DNA of 32,000 bases. Source: Gammaproteobacteria bacterium. GTDB taxonomy: Bacteria > Pseudomonadota > Gammaproteobacteria > JBIOEC01. Both the position numbers and the translations under genes were made by a program. How positions within the stretch are numbered: the stretch's first letter is position 1; each line of letters starts with the position of its first letter. Below, piece after piece: positions 21,010 to 25,398 of this stretch. The stretch is from positions 1,800,001 through 1,832,000 of the forward strand of contig OZ257143.1 in NCBI GenBank assembly GCA_965279305.1, written 5' to 3'. A model generated the notes under the pieces. The model saw only the letters and a list, made by a program, of their open reading frames with translations, ran no database searches and was not told the DNA's origin.

Positions 21010-24000
21010 TTAAGTCAGTATAGGGCCAGGAAGATGCGGTGGCACTAAAGAAAGCGATTGTTCTCTTAACGCTTGATGTAAACAGGTTTCAGCGGCGCGA
21101 GGAATGGCTTCTAGCTCCGCTGCCATCCTTAAATCATCTTCAGTAAAAAGTGCTTGATCGACAGGCGTTAAAAAAGCACGTATCGCAGTAAAGGTAAGAG
21201 GCTCATGAGAAGTTAAAAAAGCATGTACTTGTTCTTGCTGATAGGGAAAAATACTCATGAAATTAGTCATGTCGGCTTTAAGAGGCCCCCTAATGCTTTC
21301 ATTAAAACGATATAACAAAGCCATATGCATTATCACTTGAATAAGATCCTGTTTTGCTTCAGGCACTTTAGTTGCTGGGATATTATAATGCCCGCCCACA
21401 TGAGGATTCTTTATAAATTTATAGAGAGACTGCACACTAGCCATCAAAATATTATCCACTACTTGAAGTTGGTTTAGATTGTCTTGTTTATCTCTATCAT
21501 TAGAATTATAAAATAATGCCGTTGCTTTAATTAAAGCCATATTGATACTGTCACAATCATTAAATGAATCTGCTTCAATAATAGGATTAGCTTCAGGAGC
21601 TAACAAGATCCCATTGGTTTTGAAAAAACCTCCAAATGAGATAGGTACTCCAGAGGTTTTTCCTATATTTCTCAAACTAGGCGTATAATAAAAAAGTGTT
21701 TCAAATGTGGTTATAAAAGAGGTTAAGAACACCACATTAGAAGGATTAAATTCATCAAACTTTTTCATTCTCTCTACTAACGGATCCAATAAAATTTGAA
21801 CTTCTGTATTAGGTGAAATGCGGTTCAGGATTGCTGTTGTTCTTGCTAGCGTTTCTTGAATAATTTCTGCATTAGATGTCGGATCAGATAAAGCGGCTTG
21901 AATAGCCAAAGAATTATCAATAACATGAGCCGTTAAATGGGAACGAGAGGCAGCAGAAATATCAATTTCAGCTTCGTCGTAAACATCCGATCTAAGGGCT
22001 AAATCATCAAGATCAGGCACTAATTCACTATCATCCGATGCATACCATTCAGCAATTCCTTTAGCTAATAGTCTATTCACGCTGGGAACATGCGCATCGA
22101 TAGCATCGAAAAGATCATTTTTAGTGGCATCTAAATCAACCATATTTCGAAGGTGTACAATTTGTACCGGTTCAACGATAGCTTTAGTTTTGGGAACAGC
22201 TGCAGAAACGGGTTCAGCATCAACGCCTGCCTCAGCGGGCTCTCGTATTGGTTCTGCATCAGTGTCTGTCGCAGGAATAGGCTCAGCATCCACGTCTACT
22301 GCAGCAGGTTCTGGTATTGGTTCAGGTACGGGTTCAGCTTGAGGCACTATCTCTTTATCGCGAATCCATTTTTTAGCAGCATCAGGATCGGTAACAAGAG
22401 CAAAATATTTTTCAAATGCAGGATCAACTAAACATATTATTTTTAAAATATTTTTCTCAGTCGAAGAAAAAGCCATTGCTTGCAATTGTTGTTCAACATA
22501 TTCATCATGAGATGTATCTAACCTTATAAAATCAGACATCAAATCATCAACAGCAAGATTAAAACTTCCACTTCTTTCCTCAATTTCACTTTGTAAAGTC
22601 GAAAAAAGATTATCTGCAAAAACAGGATTTTCATAAAAGAAATTATTTAATATTCCTTTAACCCTAGCATCAAACCCCATACGATTAAAGAACTTATCAA
22701 ACATCTCTTTAACGTCAGCTTCAAAAATATTCAAGCCATCTCGATTTGGGGCAAGATATCTAATGGTCATATATTCTAAATAATCAGATATAAAACCTTG
22801 AATAAAATCATTTTTATTTTTCTTGAAAAAATCATCAACAAAAGGATTATTGGTTCTTTCAACAACCACATCTTCTCTTGAGATTGGATCGGGAGTTGTT
22901 ACCTTTATTTTTTTATTTAAAATAGCATAGAGTTTTGATTTCTTATCAGAAATTTGATTTTTTTTGTCTTCACTATCCCCAGCCTTAGGATTATAATCAT
23001 TAGCATAGACTAATAAATCTTCTCTATATCGTATATTAGCTCTTAGAATAAATTCTTTCTGAGCCAATTCTGCTTCTTCTGCCATATCCAGAGGAGTTAA
23101 AGGATGAGCAATACGACTACGAACTTCTGTTGCCATTTTATTTAGTAAAGATGAAACGGCGGGATCCATTTTTGCAGAACCATTTTTAACGTCTTCATCC
23201 AATGCTTTTGTTTTGTCCTTAATATATTCAGAAATAATTTCAGGTGTATCAGATCGTTTAGCATATTTAGCAGCAAAATCTCCCAGATCACGGGCTGAAA
23301 TAATCTCACTTTTAGGAGCTACCCCAATGATATGTGGTAATTGTACAAATATGTTCCTGATAGAATAGTTTTTATCTTGTGCTTCTGCTGTGTTTTCACC
23401 AAAAGGTTGATAAAAACGACGTAAATAAGCCATATCAGTTTCTGATGTTTTAGAATCTAAAGGATGATTTTGAGGATCGGCCAATTCAATTAGGTCATCC
23501 ATAGAATCCGGGAGATCATCATTGATTCCCCAAATAGTTTGTAAGCCTGCATTAAAAGCAATACTGGTTTTTAAAGGAGAACCCGCCATATTTGCTTCTC
23601 CACCAAAAGTTAATTGAGAAGCAAGAAGATTCGTAGCTGGATAAAATGGAACACCTTCTTTAATATGAGCCTGTATTGCTTGATTATAGTTTCGATGATT
23701 TCCATCGGTACTGAAAAAAGTGTTTACTTCATCAAAAATAGTAAGAATAGAAAGTGGGAGCCCTGCACTGCTAATTACTCTTCTAATCGCCGTGGTATCT
23801 AAAGCGGCTTTAATTTGCATTGCAAATGAATAATAACGGCTATGTATTAATTCATTAGCAATTAAAATCCATTCAGCAACACGAGTGTTTCTAATATTAA
23901 TATCAGGACAATTAGCAATAGATAATTGAACAAACCAGTTTAAACGTTGAGTTATTTCCTGATTCCATACCCAAGCAGAACCATCTTTTCTATTGGTTCT

Positions 24001-25398
24001 TCTTTGTTCCATTTTCTTAGCATCATCTTGAAAAAAATCTTCTGGTGTAAACAATGACAGTAAATATGATTCTAACGCTTTCAACTCGACTATGGTTTTG
24101 GTAAGAAACTCAGTTTCATAGTCAACGATTCTATTTTCATCCTCTTTATAAATAAGCCTAACCATCGCTTTTGATACTCGTGCTTGTATATAAGAGGGGT
24201 TGCTTTTAGTCTTTGGAAGTCGAGCAGACATTGCAGGATGATATAATAAATTTTCATTATAAAAATCATGATTAGGTTCATGTAGCATTGCATCTGCTCT
24301 TCGCTCAAAATTAGAAACAAGCGGAAGATGCTTATAGGCAGGTCCACTAATTTCTTCAAAACTTGAACTCAGCTGAGATAATATACGATGAGCTCTGTCA
24401 TTATCGTCACTTAAATTATTTTCAACATAATCTAAAATAATATCAGCGCCAGCCAAAGTCGGGGCTAATATTTTAATTTTTTCTTCATTAGCTTCATAAT
24501 TTTCAAGTAAATTAATTAAATATTTATGAAGAATTGGGTTTATCTCAGATCGACTAATTAAAATAGTTAATTCATTCAATCTATTAGAAGCAATTAAATG
24601 ATTAATAACGTCAGTAAAAACTTCTTCTTGAGCTTCAATATCAGCTTCAAACATCTTATTCATCAAAAAAGGACATTTTAAAGAAAATTCTTCAACAAAC
24701 GGTTTTGCAGTATTAGCAACATTTCTATTAATATCCGTTTTAATATGAATATTTTTCCCATCTGTAAGCTTGATTAGATCGCTAAAAGAATGGAGCATGT
24801 TAATCGAGGAGATAGAAAGGCCTCTGGATAAAAGCCTTTTAACAGCAGAATAATCATTAACCGCTTTTTTTAAATGATCGGCTTCATCTTTTTCTTTCTT
24901 AGCTAAAATATTATCTCTAATAGTTTGATCATGAATCGTATCAAAATAATTTTGAATCTCATATTTTTCAAAAACATTTCTATAGGAAAAATCAAATTCT
25001 TTAATTTTATCATCAATAATTTTTATAAAATCATTGGCTAGTTTAAGATCAGAATCTTTAACTTCAGCACCCACTTGTCGTTTTAATAAAAACTCTGCTT
25101 TTTCTTTAAGAGTAGTTAATAATAAATTAGCAGAAGTAAGTCTTTCTAATCGAGTAGAGAGTGGTTCATCTCGTGAAAAGATTGATAAAAGAGCGGTATA
25201 TTCATCCCAAGCGCTTTTCATTTCTAAAAGAATGGCATCTATATGCGCCGTATATTCCCTGCGATCATCTTCAGATGTGATATCAGCTTTATTGGGAAAG
25301 ATAGACGTTTTGCTTTTTTTTGTAAATTTTTCGGCAGCGCGTTTTACAAGCTTGTCATAAGCCTTTTTTTGGCTCTTATAGGTAATATATGGGATCAT
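21010..25398 (-). CDS. Large AT-rich protein (about 1462 aa from ATG 25398; ORF open to TTG 25464) with a central eukaryotic-type RasGEF (Cdc25-homology) domain; candidate secreted effector
   Basis: The ORF is an uninterrupted 4.4 kb. See the RasGEF sub-feature. The remaining regions are unrecognised: helical/coiled-coil-like N-terminus, acidic Pro-rich linker and a C-terminal region of about 400 aa. The start is ambiguous because neither candidate has a good SD. Confidence 0.85.
   Translation of the reverse strand: [1462 protein letters not shown]
23455..24132 (-). other. RasGEF (Cdc25-homology) catalytic-domain-like region
   Basis: The translation aligns by eye with SOS1/Cdc25 blocks. [17 protein letters not shown] matches [74 protein letters not shown] matches [94 protein letters not shown] matches NFKNYR....PCIPYLG.YLTDLTFIEEGN. 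Confidence 0.68.

Follow-up and report, generated by a model that had tools for sequence, protein, structure and literature searches.

Does this locus encode a genuine eukaryotic-type RasGEF (Cdc25-homology) domain within a bacterial gene, and what might a bacterium do with such a protein? The question was raised by an earlier note on the 32,000-nucleotide stretch of DNA analysed here (hereafter the window), which placed the domain at 23455..24132, corresponding to residues 445-670 of a large minus-strand open reading frame. This frame is unbroken across 21010..25464 and would encode 1484 amino acids if counted from a TTG codon. Of the 1460-1484 amino acids originally suggested, a length of 1462 from the downstream ATG holds, since the database protein P0001 (100% identical to the gene product) begins at this codon. 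The TTG start was rejected because a 1-nt indel between TTG and ATG disrupts the frame in L001, the same locus in an independent assembly (90% identity). Features of the gene are listed in Table 1. The 1462-aa protein carries no transmembrane segment (highest 19-residue Kyte-Doolittle mean of 1.44), and no signal peptide is apparent at its N-terminus upon inspection. The intergenic region preceding the gene could conceivably have a regulatory role.

Table 1. Positions of the RasGEF-domain gene and its parts in the window
Feature	Positions	Strand	Details
RasGEF-domain gene, complete, 1462 aa	21010..25398	minus	ATG at 25398, stop at 21010-21012; ORF list
Upstream intergenic region	25399..25490	minus	95% identical to L001 counterpart
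Approximate full Cdc25-homology region	23230..24126	minus	P0001 residues 425-723; used for profile and model
Pfam RasGEF (PF00617) match	23590..24084	minus	ORF residues 461-625; model positions 6-166 of 181
First RasGEF block, 18 residues	24031..24084	minus	Read from sequence
Second RasGEF block, 36 residues	23776..23883	minus	Read from sequence
Third RasGEF block, 37 residues	23590..23700	minus	Read from sequence
Hairpin-entry block, 22 residues	23590..23655	minus	HMMER/hhalign alignments to Epac2 and amoebozoan RasGEF
Candidate second hairpin helix, 17 residues	23524..23574	minus	Positional match to canonical I-N-F-x-K helix
Family-specific middle module	22369..23481	minus	A-D-P-x-x-H motif, N-P-F...K...Y block, others
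Acidic Pro/Glu/Ala-rich linker	22183..22344	minus	13 residues...AAVPKTK; 100-residue block composition and direct reading
C-terminal module common to family	21013..21936	minus	Alignment A7

The centre of the 1462-aa protein is a real but diverged Cdc25-homology domain. The Pfam RasGEF family (PF00617), which is the sole Pfam domain in the gene and whose match lies within the interval originally proposed, is recovered at E=1.8e-12 (47.9 bits, compared with a gathering score of 23.1), far below E=1e-3. Searching 1.84 billion protein representatives exhaustively with phmmer yielded three relatives beyond the protein itself, none of which is a known Legionella protein. Two are giant proteins from metagenomes, P0003 (2097 aa) and P0004 (1126 aa), both from JGI sample 3300050821 and 23-26% identical to the window protein; the third is an amoebozoan RasGEF, the sole eukaryotic protein reached. 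These three score against PF00617 with E values of 1.3e-13, 2.8e-17 and 1e-15 (51.7-63.6 bits). A profile built from the four known family members (A3) was run against the PDB and matched Epac2 (8.7e-9), RasGRP2 (2.2e-7), RasGRF1 (3.2e-7), Cdc25 (4.1e-7) and RalGPS1 (6.6e-7), as well as RasGRP1, Rgl2 and RasGRP4. To E=0.016 the matches are solely solved RasGEF catalytic domains, and all those with E<0.1 are Cdc25-homology proteins; SOS1 is not among the sequence matches of this profile. A single-sequence PDB search likewise gave RasGEFs as its top three matches, and hhalign comparison with an amoebozoan REM+RasGEF protein returned a probability of 96%. Compared one to one with solved GEFs, the protein shows marginal similarity (about 14-25% identity), which agrees with the earlier description of a diverged member.

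Structure prediction, which had been proposed as a check of the domain call, points in the same direction. An AlphaFold model of P0001 residues 425-723 (pTM 0.65, core pLDDT 60-90) was compared with the PDB by Foldseek, and all of the best 50 matches are Cdc25 domains, with the highest TM-score (0.61) for RasGRF1. A longer model gave the same outcome; among these best matches the fold pairs with Cdc25-homology domains alone. We therefore hold with moderate confidence, as the model is only partly confident, that the all-helical Cdc25 fold is present. The hairpin and everything downstream of it have pLDDT values below 50; the segment that may form the second helix of the hairpin is nonetheless modelled as helical.

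The three conserved blocks described previously are all present. However, the spacing given for the second was off by one: in place of the L-x3-N-N-F-[NS] of canonical GEFs, the window protein has L-x3-R-Y-Y-S. The Asn of N-N-F is Y, S or D among family members and Y in the window protein, which bears out the assignment as a diverged member. A 3-residue insertion reported after VPF depends on the alignment used: it appears with MAFFT, whereas HMMER and hhalign align the P of F-x-P, which is invariant in the family, with the canonical Pro, and pass through the hairpin entry without an indel. This entry reads L-T-F-G-G-E-A-N and conforms to a conserved family motif, T-F-x-x-[E/D]-[G/A]-N. Residues G582, F585, P587, F598 and N603 are family-invariant, and the acidic position is E, D or D. 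We take E601 and N603 (P0001 numbering) to be the equivalents of SOS1 E942 and N944 (numbering after Boriack-Sjodin et al. 1998). Relative to L001, the dN/dS ratio is 0.28 for the whole gene (gene-wide dS of 0.18) and falls to 0.02-0.14 across the Cdc25 domain, the lowest stretch of the gene.

The window protein thus resembles eukaryotic Cdc25 GEFs (Epac2/RapGEF4, RasGRP2, RasGRF1, yeast Cdc25, RalGPS1, SOS1) in Pfam family, in predicted all-helical fold and in blocks SCR1-3, including T-F-x-x-E-x-N at the hairpin entry. In contrast to these proteins, it is encoded by a bacterial gene, has Y in place of the N-N-F Asn, and lacks their PH, DH, C1, EF-hand and cNMP regulatory domains. It also differs in that a REM domain (RasGEF_N, PF00618), for which a search had been suggested, was not detected: Pfam gave no match at E up to 10, hhalign alignment to a REM+RasGEF protein was restricted to the catalytic core, and a profile of the N-terminal region matched zero REM-containing chains in the PDB. 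Foldseek alignments of a long, low-confidence model cover entire REM-Cdc25 chains, which is a weak hint of a REM. This domain is typical of RasGEFs but is not universal. It braces the hairpin and is required by many Cdc25 domains, while RalGPS-type GEFs are active without it.

What role might such a domain serve in a bacterium? RasGEF-domain proteins are known from Legionella (LegG2/lpg0276, llo0327, lpv2258), Parachlamydia and Protochlamydia, and published tables list LegG2/lpg0276 among the Dot/Icm substrates, with the annotation 'Ras guanine nucleotide exchange' (PMC2824747, PMC3218107, PMC8442362); further identifiers of LegG2 are lpp0350 in L. pneumophila and llo0327 in L. longbeachae. 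Since RasGEF domains of amoeba-associated bacteria have been on record since at least 2010, the window protein adds to a known kind, and the novelty implied by the earlier note was overstated. Like LegG2, it is a PF00617 protein of the type found in amoeba-associated bacteria, presumed to target host Ras-family GTPases. Unlike LegG2, it is much larger, with family-specific middle and C-terminal modules, and it comes from an organism that is not demonstrably Legionella. No sequence relationship between the two was detected by phmmer, with a library not confirmed to hold LegG2. Other eukaryotic-type GEFs by which Legionella switches on host small GTPases are RalF (a Sec7 Arf-GEF) and LegG1/MitF (an RCC1 Ran activator) (PMC7542358). 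We propose that the window protein is likewise a GEF domain borrowed from eukaryotes, but RalF and LegG1/MitF have another GEF fold, act on another GTPase family and have been tested experimentally, whereas the window protein is known from its sequence.

Given a real, diverged RasGEF domain, we consider it reasonably probable that this large, soluble, multi-module protein, whose domain has eukaryotic and possibly amoebozoan ancestry, is an injected effector of the LegG2 kind that activates Ras/Rap-type signalling. Host manipulation is a reasonable inference from the precedent of LegG2 and from the amoebozoan protein being the sole eukaryotic relative. Secretion, catalytic activity and target would be as follows. 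Once delivered by the bacterium to the inside of a eukaryotic host cell, the protein would engage a Ras-family GTPase in its GDP-bound form through the RasGEF domain, whose helical hairpin would be inserted. Mg2+ and the nucleotide would then be displaced by the conserved T-F-x-x-E-x-N entry, and GTP loading would follow, switching on Ras/Rap-type signalling of the host. Targeting, regulation and a secretion signal may come from the unrecognised modules in the N-terminal, middle and C-terminal parts. Match scores lean weakly to Rap as the preferred target. This reading is weakened by the undetected REM, the replaced N-N-F Asn, the low-confidence hairpin, the lack of an SOS1 match, a weak C-terminal signal, the lack of a visible secretion system, host or GTPase in the window and a TrpS whose best identity is 68%.

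Several of these observations would also suit a Cdc25-homology domain without catalysis, acting as a scaffold that sequesters a host GTPase or binds another host protein, much as the closed Cdc25-like domains of NSP/BCAR3 proteins bind Cas proteins. The undetected REM, the substitution of the N-N-F Asn throughout the family, the poorly modelled hairpin and the marginal pairwise similarity to active GEFs are all compatible with this possibility. However, both the acidic residue and the Asn of the hairpin entry are kept across proteins at 25% identity, unlike in the dead Cdc25-like domains of NSP/BCAR3, and the dN/dS minimum falls exactly at the domain and its hairpin-entry region. Moreover, absence of a REM does not preclude activity, as RalGPS-type GEFs illustrate, and by Pfam the window protein has neither the SH2 domain of NSP/BCAR3 proteins nor any other NSP-type feature. 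We therefore judge a catalytically inert scaffold to be unlikely.

The genomic setting bears on two further explanations. The gene belongs to a very rare, separate bacterial family, is under purifying selection and sits in a bacterial chromosomal context, with trpS upstream and an ABC-2 permease gene downstream, on a 1.87-Mb contig of ~39% GC from the small genome of a gammaproteobacterium-like organism. The best matches of TrpS are to diverse Gammaproteobacteria and also Desulfobacterales. The GC3 of the gene (0.208) is the lowest in the window, and its overall GC is also below that of its neighbours. Also encoded in the window is another giant orphan; it carries mucin-like repeats, and its tail is PPxY-like. 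The gene for P0003 is likewise followed by an ABC-2 permease gene of equal Pfam family and length (264 aa), whereas that for P0004 lies in another context, with a Fic-domain gene nearby. The low GC3, the Fic-domain gene near P0004, the contig of 1.87 Mb and the mucin-like orphan together give an effector-like setting.

The target might instead be a bacterially encoded Ras-like GTPase, acted on inside the bacterium or co-delivered as a self-contained switch module, as Legionellales genomes encode Rab/Ras-like GTPases (PMC2824747; bioRxiv 10.64898/2026.04.11.717937). However, a GTPase gene is visible neither in the 32-kb window nor beside the relatives. We also know of no bacterial GTPase that is served by a GEF of the Cdc25 type, and regard this alternative as quite improbable. 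The low GC and GC3 might suggest contamination of the assembly or a eukaryotic insert that is very recent and non-functional, but this explanation is effectively refuted by the uninterrupted 4.4-kb frame amid bacterial housekeeping genes, by the independently assembled L001 locus with its signature of purifying selection, and by the 264-aa neighbour gene kept beside a 26%-identical relative.

As the earlier note had observed, the flanks of the domain (~420 and ~800 residues) lack any domain recognised in Pfam, NCBIfam or PDB sequence searches. P0003, which has ~700 residues more than the window protein, and P0004 share with it not only the RasGEF domain but also the C-terminal module and the middle module with its A-D-P-x-x-H motif. 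The middle module is conserved among all three and has zero matches in Pfam or in PDB sequence searches. The C-terminal module has an invariant C, Q-x-Q and D-M..F...F in alignment A7 and is without a match in a PDB sequence search. By a published -3/-4 C-terminal criterion for secretion signals (PMC2824747), the residue at -3 of the protein is hydrophobic and that at -4 is Pro; its Glu block is weak, as are the signal features overall. It is possible, if doubtful, that these three proteins form a distinct family, ancient in origin, of giant RasGEF effectors that lack a REM and come from an undescribed host-associated gammaproteobacterial lineage, drawn from an amoebozoan-like source independently of LegG2. 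Such a family would have kept the same type of neighbour gene down to ~25% identity and would couple its GEF to conserved accessory modules, possibly with a new activity.

Bacterial Sec7- and RCC1-type GEF mimics (RalF, LegG1) have taught much about how pathogens seize GTPase switches. The first listings of Cdc25-type mimics in papers on Legionella genomes date from 2010 or earlier, and no description of their function, including the biochemical function of LegG2 itself, was found in the accessible literature. The window protein does not reveal a new principle, and routine Pfam annotation already labels its RasGEF domain. It does represent a second, very divergent lineage of RasGEF mimics beyond recognised Legionella and flags its source organism as probably host-associated. 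Because its catalytic core is well conserved, it offers an independent handle on the question of which GTPase of the Ras family is activated by bacteria of this kind, and for what reason.

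The large minus-strand protein of the window carries a single Pfam domain, RasGEF PF00617, which is matched with E=1.8e-12 and 47.9 bits (the gathering score for this family is 23.1 bits). When the single sequence was compared with solved structures, the best three matches were RasGRF1, RasGRP1 and Rgl2, each with weak similarity. A profile built from four family members and searched against the PDB matched Epac2 (8.7e-9), RasGRP2 (2.2e-7), RasGRF1 (3.2e-7), yeast Cdc25 (4.1e-7), RalGPS1 (6.6e-7), RasGRP1 (1.1e-6) and Rgl2 (1.2e-4), and no match other than RasGEF domains was returned at E<0.1. 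Because Epac2 and RasGRP2 give the top scores and SOS1 was not reached by this profile, the profile scores lean weakly toward Rap-type GEFs. Alignment by hhalign with an amoebozoan protein that has both RasGEF_N (REM) and RasGEF domains yielded 96% probability across the catalytic core.

An AlphaFold model of residues 425-723, prepared with a five-sequence alignment as input, has a pTM of 0.65, with pLDDT values of 60-90 in the core and below 50 for the hairpin and everything beyond it. Foldseek comparison of this model with the PDB gave Cdc25-homology domains as all 50 of the best 50 matches, among them RasGRF1 (TM-score 0.61), RalGPS1, RasGRP2/4/1, Cdc25 and SOS1/2. A 760-residue model was poor overall (mean pLDDT 44) and recovered the same families. 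The earlier note had proposed a eukaryotic RasGEF domain from the sequence alone, and the Pfam, Epac2 profile and Foldseek matches support this reading; the three sequence blocks it quoted are all found in the protein.

The ORF encoding this domain spans 21010..25464 and comprises 1484 aa when counted from a TTG codon; the range first proposed for the domain, 23455..24132, corresponds to ORF residues 445-670. A database protein that is 100% identical to the window protein (P0001, 1462 aa) starts at an ATG at 25398. In locus L001, which encodes a 90%-identical relative (P0002), the reading frame is disrupted by a 1-nt indel that lies between these two codons, and therefore we use the ATG as the start of the gene. 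An antisense TTG-start ORF of 108 aa within the RasGEF gene (25034..25360, plus strand) is most likely spurious.

Coordinates of the RasGEF gene and of neighbouring features in the window
Feature	Position	Strand	Basis or remark
RasGEF gene	21010..25398	-	P0001 identity, ATG start, L001 indel
RasGEF PF00617 match (ORF residues 461-625)	23590..24084	-	Pfam
Spacer between trpS and RasGEF gene (92 nt)	25399..25490		95% identical to L001 spacer
ABC-2 permease (264 aa), ABC ATPase (258 aa), family-4 glycosyltransferase (355 aa)	18277..20921	-	Directly downstream of RasGEF gene
tRNA-Asn (GTT)	18131..18205	+	Sole RNA gene in window by ARAGORN and Rfam
Orphan ORF (1836 aa)	7700..13210	+	No Pfam or NCBIfam match

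A 3-residue insertion after VPF, described in the earlier note, is reproduced by MAFFT alignment. However, in HMMER and hhalign alignments the family-invariant Pro of G-x-x-F-x-P pairs with the canonical Pro of V/I-P-F/Y and there is no gap ahead of T-F-x-x-E-x-N, and therefore the insertion is an alignment-dependent detail. Under either alignment, the hairpin entry keeps an acidic residue (E in the window protein, D in both relatives) and an Asn that is conserved in the family. We take these two positions to be equivalent to E942 and N944 of SOS1 in the SOS1-Ras structure. In the N-N-F motif, the conserved Asn is replaced by Y, S or D in the window family. The REM domain (RasGEF_N, PF00618), which the earlier note had listed for checking, was not found in a Pfam search (E up to 10), in the hhalign comparison with the REM+RasGEF protein, or in a PDB profile search with the region preceding the RasGEF domain.

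We hypothesize that the protein is an effector translocated by the bacterium, and that its Cdc25-homology domain would activate a host Ras-family GTPase through the usual hairpin mechanism. This is a plausible and the best-supported reading; the analysis establishes the identity of the domain, its constraint, its membership of the family and its bacterial context, and secretion, activity and target are our inferences. The missing REM domain and the altered N-N-F motif would also suit a domain that serves as a non-catalytic scaffold, but the conserved hairpin entry argues against this role. The protein could also act as exchange factor on a GTPase that the bacterium itself encodes, although no GTPase gene is located nearby. 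Synteny between independent assemblies, together with purifying selection, rules out contamination or an assembly artefact.

By gene content, the window is ordinary bacterial chromosome (39% GC), and the P0001 contig is 1.87 Mb long. The upstream part carries rne, plsC, uvrB and genes for an aminotransferase, an outer-membrane barrel protein, a flavin monooxygenase and an ABC-F ATPase, followed nearer the RasGEF gene by tRNA-Asn and by GT4 transferase, ABC ATPase and ABC-2 permease genes, the last three of which resemble a cluster for the initiation and export of a polysaccharide. The other flank holds trpS, folA, thyA, lgt, mpl and purL. A scan of species representatives in the genome collection with TrpS gave a best identity of 68%, with matches in diverse Gammaproteobacteria and also in Desulfobacterales. 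No secretion-system genes are present within the 32-kb window.

The 1836-aa orphan in the same window resembles a mucin-like protein, of the surface or host-mimicking type. Its N-terminal TM segment precedes a very long Ser/Thr/Ala/Pro-rich region, in which a 27-nt unit (encoding ATSAVPTAE) is repeated ten times in tandem at 11101..11373. Near residue 1440 there is another TM segment, and after it comes a proline-rich tail of ~390 residues containing PPPPEY (PPxY-like). The counterpart locus in L001 has a 1794-aa gene.

Relative to P0002, the whole RasGEF gene exhibits a dN/dS of 0.28, and the RasGEF region, at 0.02-0.14, is the most constrained stretch of the protein. No TM segment is present, and on inspection the N-terminus is unlike a signal peptide. 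The GC (0.341) and GC3 (0.208) of the gene are the lowest among the 19 window genes, with GC3 at 0.25-0.43 for the remainder; these values fit either foreign origin or relaxed codon adaptation. The identity of the upstream spacer between the window and L001 contrasts with an intragenic synonymous divergence of ~0.18, and the spacer may contain conserved regulatory sequence. A promoter and terminator scan yielded signals no better than those of shuffles, and visual inspection of the sequence upstream of the gene revealed no tandem PmrA-like box with a spacing of 11 bp.

The family is extremely rare. Only P0001 and P0002 were recovered both by a word-indexed search of 5.8 billion proteins and by an alignment-based search with the domain alone. 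When 1.84 billion representatives were searched exhaustively by phmmer with residues 285-1484, three proteins beyond P0001 were found: P0003 (2097 aa, E 1e-34) and P0004 (1126 aa, E 7e-23), both from JGI metagenome 3300050821, and P0005 (838 aa, E 1e-4), which comes from the amoebozoan Clastostelium recurvatum and has the canonical REM+RasGEF architecture. Scans with family alignments gave no relatives in the genome collection and, in two scans, no matches in the metagenome collection; tblastn against plasmids likewise gave none. Beyond the RasGEF domain, the window protein, P0003 and P0004 share two modules, one in the middle of the protein (with A-D-P-x-x-H and N-P-F...K...Y blocks) and one at the C-terminus, neither of which has a Pfam match or a sequence relative in the PDB. 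The adjacency of the RasGEF gene to the permease gene is retained in L001, and the gene of P0003 is likewise followed by one for a permease of the same family and length. A Fic-domain gene (450-aa protein) lies ~3 kb from P0004, with 130-aa and 635-aa genes between them, and this neighbourhood may be a small effector cluster. Unannotated 151-aa and 497-aa genes are also close by on the P0004 contig.

Among known bacterial RasGEF proteins, Legionella LegG2/lpg0276 (lpp0350, llo0327) is a Dot/Icm substrate tabulated as 'Ras guanine nucleotide exchange' (PMC2824747). A second copy, lpv2258, was noted in 2011, when the domain was described as confined to Legionella, Parachlamydia and Protochlamydia (PMC3218107), and the Legionella RAS-GEF family is among the pathogen-associated domains in PathFams (PMC8442362). 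Screens for translocation and for membrane binding, as well as CRISPRi screens, have covered LegG2; a 2020 review on Legionella mimicry does not discuss it, and the literature searched yielded no description of its biochemical function. No known Legionella protein was among the relatives of the window protein in the exhaustive search, although LegG2 is possibly absent from the representatives searched. The novelty of the window protein is modest: RasGEF domains are already known in bacteria, and to these it adds a highly divergent member.
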